Both the position numbers and the translations under genes were made by a program. The notes beneath the pieces are model-generated. The model saw nothing but the letters and a program-made list of their open reading frames with translations, did no database searches and was not told the origin of the DNA. Positions 241 through 53,026 of a stretch of 64,000 nt of DNA are shown one piece after another; position 1 is the first letter of the stretch; the number at the start of each line of letters is the position of its first letter. The stretch comes from Octopus vulgaris (taxonomy: Eukaryota). The stretch is taken from assembly GCA_951406725.2 (NCBI GenBank), contig OX597828.1, positions 26,164,001 to 26,228,000 on the forward strand. The letters run 5' to 3'.

Positions 241-494
241 ATATATATATATATAAGCAAAATAGCTAGTTATAGAACCTCCTATTCTCCGCCAGCTGGT
301 TATCGGTGCAACATTCTGCACTCTTTATAAACAAGATATTGCTCGGAGGAGCGGGGCGAACGCTTACTACCCTCTCGCAGTTAACAAGCTCGCGAGACTG
401 AATTAGTTTCGAGCTATTTGGCTGATCTTCAGCCGCGAGCACCTGCACACCAGAGCGATACCCAGAATCTGCCACCGTTAACAATGTAGAGTTT

Positions 495-637
495 CACTGG
501 TGCTTAGTTTATCGACCCCGAAAGGATGAAAGGTAAATTTGACCTCAGCGGAATTTGAACTCAGAAGGTAGGGACGGGTGAAATATCGCTAAGCGTTTCA
601 TCCGACTCACTAACGCTTCTACCAGCTCGCCGCACTT
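495..637 (-). mobile_element. SINE family B, diverged copy
   Basis: Reverse complement of gcggcgagctgg...ttctgagttcaaattccgc...cctttcatcctttcggggtcgataaa, matching the full copy at 36673. Confidence 0.8.
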
Positions 638-638
638 A

Positions 639-1968
<1,330 letters not shown>

Positions 1969-24896: not shown

Positions 24897-25425
24897 CGAA
24901 ATGCGTAGCCGTATTTCTGAGTTCAAATTCCGCCGAGGTCGACTTTGCCTTTCATCCTTTCGGGGTCGATTAAATAAGTACCAGTTACGCACTGGGGGCG
25001 ATATAATCGACTTAATCCGTTTGTCTGTCCTTGTTTGTCCCCCCTGTGTGTAGCCTCTTGTGGGTAGTAAAGAAATAGGTATTTCGCCCATCGCTACGTT
25101 CTGAGTTCAAATTCCTCCGAGGTCGACTTTGCCTTTCATCCTTTCGGGGTCGATTAAATAAGTACCAGTTATGCACTGGGGTGGATATAATCGACTTAAT
25201 CTGTCTGTCCTTGTTTGTCCCTCCTGAGTTTAGCCCCCTGTGGATAATAAAGAAATAGGTATTTCGCCCATCGCTACGTTCTGAGTTCAAATTCCGCCGA
25301 GGTCGACTTTGCCTTTCATCCTTTCAGGGTCGATGAAATAAGTACCAGTTACGCACTGGGGTCAATGAAATCGACTATCCCTCTCCCCCAAATTTAAGAC
25401 TTTCTGCCTATAGTAGAAAAGGAAT
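24897..25425 (+). mobile_element. Head-to-tail array of three headless SINE family B bodies (~180-bp period)
   Basis: ttctgagttcaaattc at about 24915, 25099 and 25279. Confidence 0.88.
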
Positions 25426-26208: not shown

Positions 26209-27002
26209 AGGGAGCAGTGGAAATGAGAGAATGAAAGACATGTAGAGGAAAGTTAGATGGGAAGAGTTAGAGCGAGCGAGAAGAGAGAGAGAGGGGAACT
26301 GTGTGGGAACAAAAGAACTGGCGATAGGATAGGATAGGAAATAGTTCCAGATTAAGAATTTAAAGACTTGTTTTCCATATTAATACCTTCATGTATATCA
26401 CGGGTCCAAGTGGATGTGTGTGTGTGTGTGTGTGTATACAGTAGTGCGAACACGCTATCTTTAAGATAGCATGTTTTACATTGGTTTGGTATTACTGTAT
26501 CATAAATTCTTGTACTGTACCTACGTAAGTATAGATAGGCCATGCATGAGGGAAGATGCTCCAGCATCGATAATGGAAAGCATAAAACAGAACTATAAGA
26601 TGAAATACAATTATACTAAAAGAGTGTGTATTTATAAGGCAATGAAAAATTAATACCTAAATACTGCCGATAAATTTTAATATAAGCACTACAGCTGTTC
26701 CTTACGTAACTTTTAATGAAGAATGAGAACATTACATCATTATAAAAGACCGTAATCATCAGATAAGAACATGATTTTTACAGAACGAAGAGGTATCCCT
26801 GGAATGCAGCGGAGATGTGTCTGTCGAGGCCGAGCTATAGAAAGGGAGACATCACTCAACCCTACCTTGAACATACCTTTCAAGTATCTGATTTTATCGG
26901 AATCCTCATTTTAATGATACACACACACACACACACACACACACACTACGATGCAATTTCAATGCAGTTAGTGTTAGTTACTAAACACAATATCATCATA
27001 AA

Positions 27003-27353
27003 TACCTATTTCTTTACTACCCACAAGGGGCTAAACACAGAGAGGACAAACAAGGACAGACAAACGGATTAAGTCGATTATATTGACACCAGTGCGTAAC
27101 TGGTACTTATTTATCCACCCCGAAAGGATGAAAGGCAAAGTCGACCTCGGCGGAATTTGAACTCAGAACGTAAGGGCAGACGAAATACGGCTATGCATTT
27201 CGCCCGGCGTGCTAACGTTTCTGCCAGCTCGCCGCCTTTAAGGAAGAAAGGCAAAGTCGACCTCGGCGGAATTTGAACTCAGAACGTAGCGGCAGACGAA
27301 ATACCGCCAAGCATTTCGTCCTGCGTGCTAACGTTTCTGCCAGCTCGCCGCCT
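27003..27353 (-). mobile_element. SINE family B, full copy plus a duplicated 5' half
   Basis: ctgccagctcgccgcctt occurs twice (about 27221 and 27337). Confidence 0.9.
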
Positions 27354-32086: not shown

Positions 32087-32823
32087 GGGACTTCCATAGT
32101 TTCTGTATATGAAATTCACTTACAAGGCATCGATCAGCCCAGAACTATAGCAAAAGATATTTGCCTAAGGGGCTTCAATTATTTACACCGACTTTTCTCC
32201 TTTTTCTTTCTTTTTTAGGCCTGTGGGTATTCGAATATCTGCAAATGTACTATTCTTGCTTCTTATAAATGGAACATGAAAAATTTCGTCTTGACATCAT
32301 ATGGCTGCAAGTAAACGTCATTGACAAGGCTCACAATGTCGAAATGCATCCCATGGATTATAAAATATTTCGACCTTCACCACGTCGCCATTATGCCGAG
32401 TTTGTTCTCTCTCCATGTTTGATGAAGAAATTTCCATATTTATTTCTCCTTTGTCCTTTCTGTTAATCATTTCCATCTTCCATTTCGATTTCTCGCAATA
32501 TATGTCTTAACTAAAGAGGGTCTTGCGTAAGGGGATGTATTTCCTCTTATATACTACACAAGATCTAAAACATACGAATTAACTGCTTTCAAACTATCAT
32601 TATTTGTTCAATTTCATTATCACAAACTATATATATATATAGCATCTCTTATATTCCTTCCCATGACTTTCATGTCTTATATTCCTGCCGTAAGGCTTCA
32701 CTTCCACACACGCCAGCTTAATTTAATTCGTCTTTAATCGAAAGACACTTGTTGTTAATGTACTGTTGTTTGTATTTGTAATTGTGTACAATTTCTCCGG
32801 TTTTTTTTCCTTGTTTTCGTATA

Positions 32824-32966
32824 CATTCGCTTGCTTTCTTCGAAGGAGTCTAGTGCTCTTAGCTTAGATTTTCTTGGGGCCAACCAGATCGGAACAGTTT
32901 CGAGTGTAACTGGCCGAAACTGCAAAGATGATCTGGAATTCGACTGAGGATAGGAAGCTCCGAATG
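32824..32966 (+). ncRNA. Candidate non-circularly permuted hammerhead ribozyme, family X
   Basis: cagt-T-tcgagt (32895-32905), tggcc-GAAA-ctg (32911-32922), attcga-CTGAGGA (32938-32950); all stems pair; see findings. Confidence 0.65.
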
Positions 32967-33183
32967 ACTCGTCCTTGTTTTTTTCCTGTCCTTTTTTGTG
33001 CCGTCTAACTCTCCGGATATTTTGTTGTCGCCTGTTACGTTCTTGTTCCATTTTTTGTTTTCTTTTCAGAACATTTATAAATAGAAGGTCTAACAGAAGT
33101 TTCCAGGATATTTTATATATCCCTTCATCGGAGCATTACCTCACACCTTTGGGTCTTCTTGACACCATTACCTCTCCTTACCT

Positions 33184-36449: not shown

Positions 36450-36672
36450 TATGTATAGCTTATACTCCTGTCACAGATAGCAAGTTTCTGAAAGGCAGTC
36501 GGCTAATTGTGTTACCAGTGACTTGTCTTGGCATGCAGTGCTAATGAATGCTTACAACTGCCGACGTTCAACAAAGCAGAAATACGTATTTATCAATACC
36601 ACAGCTACTACTTTTAATCTGCTACAGACACAGTTCTATGTTTAATACTATACGAGATGCTTTCTCGTATAC

Positions 36673-36905
36673 AAGGCGGCGAGCTGGCAGAAACGTTAGA
36701 ACGCCGGGCGAAATGCGTAGTCGTATTTCTTCTGCCGTTACGTTCTGAGTTCAAATTCCGCCGAGGTCGACTTAACCTTTCATCCTTCCGGGGTCGATAA
36801 ATTAAGTACCAGTTACGCACTGGGGTCGATATAATCGACTTAATCCGTTTGTCTGTCCTTGTTTGTCCCCTCTGTGTTTAGCCCCTTGTGGGTAGTAAAG
36901 AAATA
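36673..36905 (+). mobile_element. SINE family B, full length, 14-bp flanking duplication
   Basis: gagatgctttctcg at 36654-36667 and 36906-36919; central domain resembles the Meta/Sauria-SINE-type ccttccatccttccgaggtcg motif (from recall). Confidence 0.92.
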
Positions 36906-37330
36906 GAGATGCTTTCTCGAGACGAATACCGCAGTTCAAGGCTTTCAACACCATATCTGCGTCAAGAATGATATGCAGAATGCTAACGAAGTTATTTAAC
37001 TTTGAGGGTAAATGAAAGATGCCATCATCTAGATAGGAATATATGTTCGTGATATCGTGTTCATAGATTATGTTGAACCCAGGTCAATCCAGACCAAGAT
37101 GATTTACGATCAAGCTCATTCAAGCCTTGACCGTCTTCTCAATTTTAGGCAACGACTACAATATCCAACACGTATTAGTTATATATTAGAAAGATTTGCC
37201 TGCTATTTCTAGCAAAGAAAAAAGAACGACAACTTAGAGAGTCTCTTGTGCTGCTATTGTTGCTGCTGCTGCTGCTGCTGTTGTTGTTGTTGTTGTTGTT
37301 GTTCAGGTCATGTCAGTAGTAGTAGTAGTA

Positions 37331-37973: not shown

Positions 37974-39399
37974 TGTGTGTGTGCGTGCGTGTGCGTGCGC
38001 ACGCTCGTGTGTGTTCAGTTAGCGTCATATCCAATAATACACAGAAATTTCTGGGTCATAATTTCAATAACAAACATTCTCCATTCATTATTTTTGTATT
38101 TTCTTCTTCCACTTCATAGTTTTCACAGCCCCATTATTGCCACGAGCTAAGGAAAGAGGATGCCTCGGCTTGGTCTCTGTAGCTGAGAGAAATAACGACT
38201 AAATCTCCCTCTAATTACTACCTACAGTGTAGCGGATAATGTTAGGGTTCGAACGTACATCTATCGTCGTTTGTCATGGATTCATTCTGGATACAACTTT
38301 AAACTGCATCCCGTTGTGAGGCCTTGGTTGGAGAGTATCAGGGTTTTGAGGAGAGTGGAAGCATCGCTTGGCCATTATTGTTCCCAGGGGTAACCTGATC
38401 TGGAACAGTAGCACCTGTTAGGGTCCAAAAGATTAGTTACTTAACAAATCGGTCAGACAGTTTGGACTCCTTAGCCTATATGGGATGGAGGGTGGATCAG
38501 CCCTTCAAAAGGAAGGAAAACCGTGATCCCAAACCTCCGCTGCCTTGCAGTCAAACTCAGCCATGGGAATGGCTTCAGGAGTAAACCCTGCAGGAAAATC
38601 GGGAGTTGCAACCCCTGGGGTAGTTCGACGTTGTCTATAACCTCATTAAAGCAAACCACGAGGCGACGCTTGTGCCAAACTGTAACAGACGTGCACTTCC
38701 TTTAGAAACAGCTGTGACGTAGAGAGGGCGAAAAGGTTGCATGGACAACATCCCGTCCTTCATATCACACTGCAGCGGATTATTCACGGTCATTAGTTAC
38801 AGAGAGAGAGAGAGAGAGGCCTCATTTATCACTAATTCAGGATAACACGGTACGCCCAATTGTGTTACGCTTATCACCAATAGCTGTGTGGTAATACGGA
38901 TCGGGGATCAGTCACAGAATTCGTTTTGAACTACAAAATCTCGTCCCTGCGATCCTCTTCAAGGTTCAGGACTACTTACGTTCTTGGGATGAAACCTATT
39001 TTTCCCCTACGATTCATTTTTCTTTTGTCACTGATTCATTCAATGCGATATTTTAATTTTTAGTCAAATATCTACTACTTCTACTGCCTTCTGGTCGATG
39101 TATACTTTTGATGGTAAAGAGTGTGTCCGAGACATGTTTTTGGTTTTCTTGTTGTTCAAGTGCTGACTTCGATGACCGGTATCTGAAGGTCTTAATGTAT
39201 ACATGACCAATTCATTTTAATAGGTTTAGTATATACAGATCAACCGGATCGCATATGTCCTCACTCTTCTATGAATCCATACGAGCGTCAATTGAGCCTG
39301 TTTTTTTTTCTGTTTTCTTCATCTCAGCCGATTTTTCACAAAAAGGAAGGTTTATCAGACGTACATGATTATTACAAGGTCTACTGCCTTTATATATAT

Positions 39400-39548
39400 C
39401 TGTTTCTTTATTACCCACAAGGGGCTAAACATAGAGGGGACAAACAAGAACAGAGAAACGGATTAAGTCGATTACATCGACTCCAGTGCGTAACTGGTAC
39501 TTAATTTATCGACCCCGAAAGGATGAAAGGCAAAGTCGACCTCGGCGG
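39400..39548 (-). mobile_element. SINE family B, 3' half
   Basis: Reverse complement of the family B core and tail. Confidence 0.85.
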
Positions 39549-39999
39549 ACATCTTATTGGGATCTATATATCACGGTACAGACACCCATAAAATCTAACA
39601 GAGTGAATTTAGCCTTAACCTTCTTACGGTATTTAACAGCATCCGAGACGCTTATTTTCCCTAAAAAATAACTTTTAAAGATCATCCAGGTCCGATATCC
39701 AAAGATAAGCCACTCATAAGCTTTAATGCACTCAGAACTTTCCCCACCACCAACACCTAAACATTCGCTACCGATATTGGGATGCGTCGAACGTGCGTCT
39801 TTTATATGCCATCAAATACCTATTTTCATGTATAAGGTGACAACCTCATTTCTGATTTCATTCATTTCTTGCCACAACACAGTAATCCTTTTTTATTTTG
39901 TTATTTGTTTCAGTCAATAAACTGCGGCCAGGTTGGAGCATCACCTCAAAAAGTTTCGTCGAATGAATCGAACCCATTGTTTTTTTTTGTCTTTTTCTA

Positions 40000-42402: not shown

Positions 42403-45085
42403 TCTCTCTCTCTATATATATAAAACTGAGAATGTGTGTCTGTCTGTGTGTTTCCCTAAAATTTGAGAACTCAACAACCAATTTCATTCAAATTTTACAC
42501 ATGCCTTACTTTAGGCCCGGGGAGTGTCATCGGCAAAAAAATTTTAACTTTTTCCCTAGGGCGACCCCACAGCATTATCATATCTTCTCCACTATTTCAG
42601 TATTACGTGTTAAAAGTGAAACAAAAACATCTCTCTATTGTAATGCAGACATTCACTTTAATACTGAAACTATTAAAGTGAAAGTATTATATAACAGGGA
42701 TGAACCATTAACAGTGGTCATCCATTTTGCTAGAAGAAGATCCGCTATGGTCTTATATGCTACACCACTGGTTTTCAATTCATATTAATCAAATTAATAT
42801 TCAATTTTTCACCCTTATTATGTGTGTGTGTGTATTATCAATTCGTATAAAATTGCATCAATGACTTGAACTTGAATAAGTGGTTTCAGATAAATGGGGA
42901 TAAATTAAAAAGGTTTGTTATTATTATTATTACTGTTTGACTATTGTAATCACATTTGTTGGTTCCTCGTAAGGGAAACGTTGTTGTGTTGCATTTGTTA
43001 AATAATTGTAAACCGTAACCCTCCCCCTTTCGGAGAAGGGGCTTTGGTTATTGTTTAAAAATTGAATTGTGTCCCTGTTTGGGGAAATTGACAATATTTT
43101 CACCGTCTTTACGGAAGCATTTTTGTTAAAATGCCTTCGATAGAAGAAAGTCCAAGAATGAATTTCGCTGCAGCCGTACACTCAACAAGAGTGCTTCTAC
43201 CTTCGTCTACTACTGCATGAGGTCAGAGGGCCAACGTCTTTCCAAGCCCTAAAAACCGTTCATGGACATGTCTGCACAACATACAGAGAAGCCTGCTATC
43301 GACAAGGTCTGTTAGAAGATGGTGCACAATGGGATGCAACTTTAGGAGAGGCTGCTTTATCACAATCACCTAAAAGTCTCAGGGCACTATTTGCAGTATT
43401 ACTACAGGCATGCAAACTGTGTGATCCGGCCACTCTATGGCTCAAATATAGAGACAACCTGGCTGAAGACATTCAGCGCCAAGCTCAACTGCTCTATCCT
43501 GACATGGAGGGTATCAGCAATGAAATCTATAACAAAACACTTATTGACATTGAAGACAGAATTGCTAAACTGGGTGGAAACGAATTGTCGACGTATGGCC
43601 TGCCACAAGCATTTAGGTCAGGGTCAAATAGCCTTCCCACCGCTGTCATTCGTGAAACAACCTACGACACTCAAGCGCTTTCAAAGTACATTGTTGAAAA
43701 TGAGCCTAAATTACTTCCGGACCAGCTGCAGGCCTACACAACTATTCTTAACAGTGTACGCCAACGCGAGGGACGAATATTCTTCCTCGATGCTCCTGGA
43801 GGGACAGGAAAAACATTTATTACAAAGCTTCTCCTTGCAGACGTTAGGCAGCATCAGGACATTGCAGTAGCTGTAGCCTCCTCTGGCATTGCAGCTACTT
43901 TGTTACCCGGTGGCAGGACAATCACACTCAACTTTTAAACTCCCTCTCAATTTAGCAGCATCCGAAATGCCTTCATGCAACATCAACAAAAGTTCAGATC
44001 AGGGACAAGTAATAAAAATGTGTAATCTAATTGTCTGGGATGAGTGCACTATGGCTCACAAGAGAGCTTTGGAAGCATTAGATAGGCTCCAATGGGAGGC
44101 AAACTCTTCCTGTCATTCCGAAAGGCACTAGAGCAGTTGAAGTCCAAGCATGCCTAAAGTCCTCTACCCTGTGGCATCATGTTACAATCCTCAGTCTCAC
44201 CACTAACATGAGAGCTCAGCTACACGGCGACAAAATGTCCACAAAGTTTGCACAGGACATTTTGACACTTGGTGAAGGCAAGATGCCTCTCGATGCTGCA
44301 GGACAAATGGAAGTGTGGTCATTTTCCTCTGTTGTTAATTCTGTAGATGACCTCAAAAACGAAGTCTTTCCCAACTTCACACAAAACTACCAAAATCACA
44401 ATTGGCTGTGTGAAAGAGCAATATTAGCTCCAAAAAACGTCGCTGTTAACAAAATTAATCAACAGCTAATGCATTCTCTTCCCAGCACTATACACACTTA
44501 CAAGTCTGTTGATACAATTCCAGATATAAATGAAGTTGTGAACTATCCTCCTGAATTTCTCAATTCACTGGAGCCTTCTGGACTACCTCCACACATATCA
44601 GCACTTAAAGTTGGAACTCCTGTAATGCTACTCCGCAATCTGGAACCACCAAGACTTTGCAATGGAACACGACTGGTGGTAAAGAAAATGATGTCATACA
44701 TTATCGAGGCGATCATTCTTTCTGGATGTGGAAAAGGTGATGACGTCTTTATTCCAAGAAATCCTCTTACTCCATCGGGAGCAGAAATTCCATTTACATT
44801 CAGAAGACTGCAATTTTCCCCCTTCGTATCAGCTTTGCCATGTCCATTAACAAATCTCAGGGTCAAACCCTCTATGTAGCTAGTCTTCTCTTGGAAGAGC
44901 CCTGCTCCTCGCATGGGCAACTGTATGTTGGCTGCTCAAGAATAGGAACCAAAAGAAACCTTTTTGTATATGCTCCACAAGGAAAAACAAGGAACATTGG
45001 TATAATCTCAACAGCCAGGAGGTATGTACAGGATCCCCCTTTTTTAACAAACTTCATGTACTTTTATGTATTTATATTAATATAC

Positions 45086-45123
<38 letters not shown>

Positions 45124-45189
45124 CCATATATATATATATAACAGAAAAATCTAATTCTTCAATTGAATGTAACCGGGCAACGCCGGGTA
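42403..45189 (+). mobile_element. Helitron, internally deleted and non-autonomous
   Basis: 5' TC...tatatatataaaactgagaatgtgtgtctgtctg terminus; 3' GC hairpin ccgggcaacgccgg (45173-45186); PIF1-like coding remnant; terminal CTRR not seen. Confidence 0.85.
43180..45000 (+). pseudogene. Helitron RepHel C-terminal region with PIF1-family SF1B helicase, frameshifted
   Basis: ECFYLRLLLHEVRGPTSF, DAPGGTGKT (Walker A), VASSGIAATLLPGGRT, IVWDECTM (Walker B), MLLRNL..LCNGTR, INKSQGQTL, HGQLYVGCSR. Confidence 0.93.
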
Positions 45190-46000
45190 TGTATGTATGT
45201 ATGCATATATTTTATTTATTACACTATTGTATGACTGAGCGCCCTCGCGTCGATTCGATTCGATTCGTTTCTTTTCGTTTCTTCTTCTCCAAGTACTGCT
45301 TTTATATATAATTATGACGCGAAACTCTATACTCTTTGCTTGACCTTCCCTTCTTTCCCTATCTCTCTCTCTCTCTCTCTCTCACTCCTCCTCATCTCTC
45401 TCTCAGCCGCCTCTCTTCCTCTATCTCTCTCTCTCTCTCTCACTCCTCCTCATCTTTCTCACAGCCGGCCGAATACTTCCTTTCGCCTGCGGCCTCCTAA
45501 CTGTAAATACACGGTTTTTCTTGCGCTCTTTTATTTGTATCGTTTTTACGTCCTGTTTGTGTCACATTTTTTTCTTTCCTTGTTTTTACCACTCTGCGAA
45601 GTAATTTTATTTAATTCCTTCGCAGGAAGGGCTAGTTCGACGAGTCGTATTCTGTCCTCACCTTCGAAACACGCGGGAGTTGAACTAGGGACAGCTGATG
45701 AAGGGGATTTTTCCTTGTGTAGTTTGTCTTGTACTCTATTTTTTCGTGGTAAAAAAAAATGGTCCGTTCCATGCTTGTTTTTACGTTTTCGTTTCTCGTT
45801 GAGTTCTACATCTATTTGTGGTGTCCTGTACTCACGTATATATATTTATATATGCATGTATATATACATGTAGATGTAGGTACGTGCATATATGTATGTA
45901 TGTATGCATATATTTTATTTATTACACTATTGTATGACTGAGCGCCCTCGCGTCGATTCGATTCGTTTCGTTTCATTTCGTTTCTTCTTCTCCAAGTACT

Positions 46001-52331: not shown

Positions 52332-52544
52332 ATTATGTCTATTTTTGTAATTAATAAATATATTTATTAATTGATTAATCTCTATTTTCTTTATGTCTAG
52401 TCGAAAGACGCCTGTTTGTGATGTCCTGTTATTGTTATTTTATTATCATTATTGTTTCTACGTTTTATTATTATTGTTTTTACGTATTATTTTTGTATCC
52501 ATATTCGTGTAACATCGTCCGTTTTTCCGTCCTTGTTTTGTATA

Positions 52545-52644
52545 CATTCGAAGCTTTCTTCCAAGGAATCTAATGCGCTTAGCTTAGTTTTTCCTTGGGG
52601 CTAGCCAAATTGGAGCAATCTCAAGATTTATCAGCCGAAATTGC
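52545..52644 (+). ncRNA. 5' half of permuted hammerhead family X
   Basis: cattcgaagc...ggct...gcaat-C-tcaaga-tttat-cagcc-GAAA-ttgc; CUGANGA half deleted. Confidence 0.55.
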
Positions 52645-52695
52645 GAAATCGTCTCCTAAATGTTTTGCGTTCTTGTCCCAGTTTGTATTTTTATG

Positions 52696-52757
<62 letters not shown>

Positions 52758-53026
52758 GTGGAGGCGCAATGGCCCGGTGGTTTCGATTCCCAGACCGGGC
52801 GTTGTGAGTGTTTATTGAACGAAAACACCTATAGCTCCACTAGTCTCCGACAGGGGATGGTGGCGATACCTGCTGTACTCTTTCGCCGCAACTTTCTCTC
52901 GCTCTTTCTTCTGTTGGCCTACTCGCTTAGCCAGCGGGGTGATGTCACTTGATGGCTTAAGCAATGTGAAGCGCATTGTGACCAGCGATGTGTAGCAACA
53001 TCTGATAGCCTGGTCGGTCACGTGAT

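Follow-up and report, generated by a model that had tools for sequence, protein, structure and literature searches.

Within a 64,000-nucleotide (nt) stretch of the Octopus vulgaris genome (assembly GCA_951406725.2, contig OX597828.1, positions 26,164,001 to 26,228,000 of the forward strand; hereafter the window), positions 52545-52646 hold a decayed member of an abundant non-coding repeat family (subfamily B); this copy retains one half of a hammerhead ribozyme motif and has lost the half containing CUGANGA. The importance of this half-copy is that of a pointer to subfamily B, and nothing more. Judged from their sequences, its intact siblings probably form a non-circularly permuted hammerhead in which stem II is split from CUGANGA, likely self-cleave after an AUC site, and probably owe their mobility to Penelope-like elements of the Naiad type. 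The motif lies outside hammerhead types I-III and outside types SGC and CSG as these are defined, and is a variant hammerhead topology.

The complete motif is 143 nt long in both subfamily A and subfamily B. From 5’ to 3’ it consists of the first strand of a closing helix (P0), a side hairpin, the 5’ strand of stem II, one strand of a helix linking stems I and II, block S, a 4-nt linker, block G, the second link strand, stem I with CUGANGA, and the second strand of P0. In the half-copy (all features on the + strand) this order can be followed as far as the deletion. The P0 5’ strand (52545-52558), whose partner is deleted, is succeeded by the side hairpin (52561-52598), which sequence and folding suggest as the second extra arm of a predicted four-way junction. 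The stem II 5’ strand (52599-52604) starts with G10.1, is detached from CUGANGA and carries one private mismatch, its GGCTAG breaking one stem II pair. Beyond it lie the 5’ strand of the link helix with the GA of a kink-turn-like motif (52605-52614), block S (52615-52626), with a predicted cut after C52620, and the linker with block G (52627-52644), comprising the stem II 3’ strand TCAGCC, GAAA and the stem III strand.

The initial annotation had compared this half-copy with the subfamily A copy at 32824-32966, listing changes in all three stems and the side hairpin around an unaltered GAAA, and all of the listed differences are indeed present (identity 74% over 179 nt). Stem III now pairs GCAAT (52615-52619) with ATTGC (52640-52644) at an AUC site, stem II pairs GGCT (52599-52602) with AGCC (52633-52636), the stem I 5’ strand reads TCAAGA (52621-52626), and the side hairpin strands are CCAAGGAA (52561-52568) and TTCCTTGG (52591-52598), with GAAA kept at 52637-52640. 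It was left unmentioned that the stem II 5’ strand so identified is not contiguous with CUGANGA.

The surrounding repeat is a 5’-truncated and internally deleted subfamily B copy that runs on into a (CA)n/(TA)n microsatellite (52396-52694, +), as seen in alignment to the sibling loci L038, L048 and L058. The same alignment confirms the reported loss of the CUGANGA half: 59-60 nt are missing between 52646 and 52647, after which homology picks up again, and this private 59-nt deletion took with it the second link strand, TCTTGA, CTGAAGA and the P0 3’ strand. Membership of a shared deleted subfamily was considered and rejected, since a 23-mer spanning the junction occurs once in the 2.8-Gb, 227-contig genome, in the half-copy only; it is thus one decayed copy, with 96-98% identity to its best relatives. 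In the absence of CUGANGA, cutting in cis is not expected, and the half-copy itself is likely dead. Directly 3’ of it, a repeat at 52758-53000 (+) is inserted in the microsatellite, with a start that by eye looks tRNA-derived, like that of a short interspersed element (SINE).

The intact form of the motif was sought at sibling loci chosen without the downstream half: 29 other loci found by the 5’ half only, and the first 30 of 2,027 exact matches to a 33-mer from blocks S and G, some of which lie next to each other as tandem or inverted pairs. The prediction that TCTTGA would precede CTGANGA was borne out at every locus, with TCTTGA placed 14 nt after GAAATTGC in 29/29 and 30/30 loci respectively. 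Stem I is fully paired in 28 of the 29 loci of the first set, and the CTGANGA core is intact in 24/29 and 29/30; in these last 29 loci the hammerhead core motifs CUGANGA, GAAA and NUH are all present. Position N7 is variable among the 30 (A in 14, T in 14, C in one, the remaining core being broken). A 22-mer from block C has 3,712 exact copies in the genome, and repeats bearing the motif number in the thousands.

Compensatory change in stems I to III, as originally proposed, stands in that each stem has pairs changed on both sides between subfamilies; for stem I the half-copy alone cannot show this, and it is the siblings that do. The majority sequences of A and B differ by nine substitutions in these stems, yet all 17 pairs are kept, four of them by double change, and the only difference in the core is at N7. 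When the changes were placed at random, all pairs were kept in 719 of 1,000,000 trials, and with four double changes in 31 of 1,000,000. Covariation was measured on a 40-row alignment (39 of 84 extracted motifs plus the half-copy), from which the side hairpin was omitted because the alignment is shifted there. Its cells were paired in 93% of cases, compared with 21-46% when partners were slid, and its covariation score of 0.200 (0.135 in shuffles) was reached in none of 500 shuffles, all of which were likewise exceeded by the number of cells with a double change. The pairs concerned are distributed over stem I (two), stem II (two), stem III (one) and P0 (two; 91% of cells paired), while the link helix is 89% paired with no double change. 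As the three stems cross, no single nested fold can show them all; nested folding recovered P0, the side hairpin and stem II in B (z -3.7), and P0, the side hairpin, the link helix and stem III in A (z -2.5).

The split of stem II appears throughout the families examined. A strand 35-40 nt upstream of GAAA pairs as stem II over 5-6 bp in A, B, B2, C and D. Without an insert, none of the five forms any pair between the block G strand and the strand that follows CUGANGA, and allowing one or two inserted bases raises this to no more than two pairs in A, B, B2 and D; an unsplit stem II was accordingly discarded for these four. Inspection by eye likewise spoke against reading the 3’ end of the motif as a classical type I hammerhead, as CUGANGA is followed by GAAU and not GAAA. 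The G10.1-C11.1 pair closing stem II, which is quasi-conserved in hammerheads (PMC3705267), is G-C in all 40 aligned rows and in all five family majorities. P0 and the side hairpin adjoin the upstream stem II strand, giving the predicted four-way junction, with no unpaired base at this point in family C. By eye, a 3-nt bulge and tandem G-A pairs connect stem III with the link helix in A, B, B2 and D, whereas the join is irregular in C. The kink-turn consensus comprises a canonical stem, a 3-nt bulge and tandem G-A/A-G pairs, and on inspection the join in these four families fits it. The link helix is also present, with different sequence, in C and D.

Other copies in the window bear on this layout. 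The subfamily A copy spans about 32641-33066 and holds a complete motif at 32824-32966 (+), with CTGAGGA at 32944-32950 and a privately decayed GUU site in place of the GUC of its siblings. A second subfamily B copy (118-240, -) has the 3’ half only, with TCTTGA-CTGAAGA, and begins 8 nt past the predicted cut, where it is preceded by (TA)n. Repeat family C (45588-45706, +) has the same layout in unrelated sequence, with the side hairpin starting at 45594, stem II at 45626, GAAA at 45666 and CTGATGA at 45695.

Comparisons with published work, here and below, refer to the portions of each source on which we drew. Eckert 2023 (PMC10085705) divides the hammerhead into blocks C, G and S, each assumed to be uninterrupted, in six possible orders, and reports types SGC and CSG in none of the known organisms. 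The S-G-C order of the octopus motif is not a circular permutation of the C-G-S order of types I-III. It resembles types SGC and CSG in this cyclic order, in its three mutually crossing stems, in a probable helix that connects stems I and II at their other ends, and in a short linker between these two stems (4 nt, as against typically 3). Unlike them, it has a non-contiguous block C, interrupted at A9/G10.1 by two additional helices in which the RNA ends lie, it has all three inter-block links closed together with a kink-turn-like connection from stem III to the link helix, and it resides in an animal genome. Because the stem II 5’ strand is detached from CUGANGA, the motif matches none of the six described permutations. 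The kink-turn-like join may answer the geometric puzzle that Eckert raises for the connection between stem III and the link helix. The plus-strand hammerhead of chrysanthemum chlorotic mottle viroid remains active with an extra A between A9 and G10.1 (PMC3705267), the same backbone position, but this is one base as opposed to a two-helix domain, and the viroid strand order is classical. Hammerheads with extra helices are attributed to Weinberg 2015 by PMC13725137. The literature searched contained no description of the split topology, including the excerpts of Forgia 2023 and of a 2017 review, where no passage matched; the supplements of Eckert 2023 and of the retrozyme preprint discussed below could hold such variants.

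Family D connects the motif with Naiads. A 20-mer taken from the 3’ ends of Naiad_Obim and Naiad_Ovul has 301 exact matches in the genome, and family D is identified as a Naiad 3’ end because it matches the 3’ untranslated region of these elements and carries the C-terminal tail of the reverse transcriptase (RT) in two of 30 loci. The split layout is visible at the 3’ ends of both published elements (PMC8557442 supplement), where Naiad_Ovul is flagged HHR_half_core; Craig et al. 2021 (PMC8557442) report that canonical hammerheads are absent in Naiads and that HHR_core and HHR_half_core cases fit no descriptor. By eye, the 3’ ends of the coral elements Naiad_Amil, Naiad_Aacu and Naiad_Anas show the split layout and four-way junction in sequence unrelated to that of octopus (PMC8557442), and those of the nematode elements Naiad-1/-2/-3_Nbra, Naiad_Hcon, Naiad_Hpol and Naiad_Asuum read as complete type-CSG hammerheads, unsplit and with a long helix linking stems I and II, one of the six having a single base inserted at A9/G10.1. 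Type CSG is otherwise represented by two metagenomic sequences only. Neither the split layout nor CSG was seen within 330 bases in many other Naiad excerpts, bivalves included. Bivalve and hemichordate Naiad ends have in common a different conserved structured motif just after the open reading frame (ORF), and the ends of Naiad_Ptep and Naiad-1 to -4_Dst place a CCCC stem I strand before CUGANGA in a layout that seems unlike both CSG and the octopus form. The 3’ end of Naiad-1_Movir bears what we take to be a twister-like motif, and Naiads may swap ribozyme classes.

Subfamilies A and B resemble Naiads (PMC8557442) in their insertion into (TA)n, tandem copies and 5’ truncation. They differ in being non-coding, and the split fold is absent from the descriptions given in the relevant passages of that paper; what they share with Naiad 3’ ends is RNA layout, with no sequence similarity to a Naiad shown. 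Subfamily B2 forms head-to-tail arrays of a unit of ~724 nt, and this B unit contains no ORF for an N-terminal GIY-YIG endonuclease with RT. The animal retrozymes of the class without long terminal repeats (non-LTR; bioRxiv 10.64898/2026.07.22.740005) are similarly non-autonomous, tandem, hammerhead-bearing and derived from Penelope-like elements; the parts of that preprint considered mention neither permuted or pseudoknotted hammerheads nor octopus or cephalopods. A GIY-YIG search of the octopus genome gave 148 matches, and in the 50 loci scanned the long ORFs belonged to elements with a C-terminal endonuclease; the motif occurred in only one of the 50, on the opposite strand and beyond a microsatellite. 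The same elements include a young Penelope-type family (L212-L216) with intact ORFs of 771-781 codons, RT plus C-terminal GIY-YIG, and many equal-scoring copies. No ORF of a Penelope-like element linked to the motif was found in a screen of the upstream flanks of 127 A, B and C copies.

Truncated copies of subfamily B carry a footprint at the predicted cut. Among the first 30 loci matching the block C 22-mer, 16 have their 5’ starts at +1 to +29 relative to the cut and none at -39 to -1; three more start at -40 to -65, and 11 reach beyond -146. Three of these loci begin at +1 directly after (TA)n. In scoring, two starts first placed at -3 were read as +1, and the +1 start of L099 was not counted as a cut-site start, being an inversion via stem I complementarity: this locus (G000:C1, near 4429250) is a subfamily B copy joined, precisely via its stem I strands, to its own reverse complement. 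When (TA)n junctions of subfamily B were read by eye at distinct loci among the matches listed, 25 of 36 lay at +1/+2 (one ambiguous) and 11 of 36 at -2 to -11. Such a pile-up is what reverse transcription of cleaved RNA would leave. A tandem or circle joint is also present in a run that is probably DNA.

A mechanism may be outlined from these features. The four-way junction of P0 and side hairpin would hold A9 on the G10.1-C11.1 pair, replacing the missing backbone link, and the kink-turn would bend stem III toward the I-II link helix. Cleavage would cut tandem transcripts into units and set the 5’ end of the RNA copied by reverse transcriptase, such that truncated copies begin at the cut. 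The layout may have originated by circular permutation of a type-CSG hammerhead via tandem duplication, since the octopus order results when a tandemly duplicated CSG unit is read starting at one stem II and ending at the CUGANGA that follows. More broadly, and with somewhat less confidence than in self-cleavage of the octopus motif, we favour the view that Naiads and their parasites use non-circular hammerheads, as their missing ribozyme, namely unsplit CSG in nematodes and, in octopus and corals, a seventh topology with a backbone broken within the catalytic core and held together again by a four-way junction and a kink-turn, with the cut setting the 5’ ends of insertions in vivo.

Several observations weigh against self-cleavage by a split hammerhead, and some of them would fit other explanations. 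The fold could be real and hammerhead-derived but no longer cutting, acting instead as a binding signal for the Naiad reverse transcriptase or for a kink-turn-binding protein, with 5’ ends arising from RT stalling at the knot. We consider this unlikely. It would accord with the broken A9-G10.1 link, with the tail of starts from +4 to +29 in B, and with the lack of a footprint in the small samples from other families (cut-site starts in 0 of 2 for A, 1 of 5 for C and 1 of 30 for D, where by eye about six start 15-40 nt upstream). It sits poorly with a core that is invariant except for N7 across unrelated families, with an H17 that is never G in the family majorities, and with a junction peak at +1/+2 when few junctions fall at -3/-4 despite the better TA microhomology there. 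Cleavage confined to trans or dimeric action, or relying on a different stem II formed directly after CUGANGA that would render the four-way junction needless, seems to us quite improbable. Dimeric minimal hammerheads are known in Penelope-like elements, tandem arrays place many motifs on one RNA, and family C permits a weak unsplit stem II (four pairs, two of them G-U, with one inserted base). The unsplit form has no such pairing in the remaining families, as described above, and it is the upstream stem II that covaries and that minimum-energy folding of B recovers.

Fortuitous pairing within an AT-rich repeat, with the subfamily differences reflecting neutral drift, is very improbable and largely excluded. 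An Rfam scan of the window gave no match at gathering score, and the copies are related, so that alignment cells are not independent. Against chance stand the rarity of full pair retention in the placement simulation, a strict layout descriptor, which in the actual window matched once, at the A copy (missing the degenerate copy of family C), and once in 200 shuffled windows, and the reappearance of this layout in families C and D and in coral Naiads, whose sequences are unrelated. To the points that count against a self-cleaving, Naiad-mobilised motif must be added that known alignments carry at most one or two inserted bases next to CUGANGA (PMC10085705), that AUC, though catalytically good, is rare in natural hammerheads (PMC1636495), and that neither the GIY-YIG search nor the upstream ORF screen found an autonomous partner for A or B. 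Two alignment measures, moreover, do not surpass shuffling (148 of 500 for the seven pairs with a double change, 489 of 500 for pair types), and the double changes represent few events inherited by many copies. The link helix lacks any A-B double change and shows an A-C mismatch in roughly half of the aligned copies, and the minimum-energy nested fold of B lacks stems I and III and the link helix, pseudoknots being outside such folding. Self-cleavage of the intact siblings through the split topology nonetheless remains our preferred explanation.

Two further features were noted in the window. One SINE-like family has several copies, some in partial tandem, at about 24900-25300 (+), 26950-27350 (-), 36670-36910 (+), 39350-39580 (-) and 490-640 (-). 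Broken reading frames at about 44090-45150 (+) (L062:1-1062) appear to resemble a PIF1-type helicase of Helitrons.

If the motif does cut, a helical junction can stand in for a backbone link that has been assumed to be indispensable, and the scheme of six permutations does not cover every arrangement. Animal genomes would then contain thousands of copies of non-circular hammerheads, which have hitherto come from environmental sequence, settling the open point of the apparent lack of hammerheads in Naiads. The genomic footprint, finally, would tie ribozyme cleavage to the formation of 5’ ends in Penelope-like insertions.
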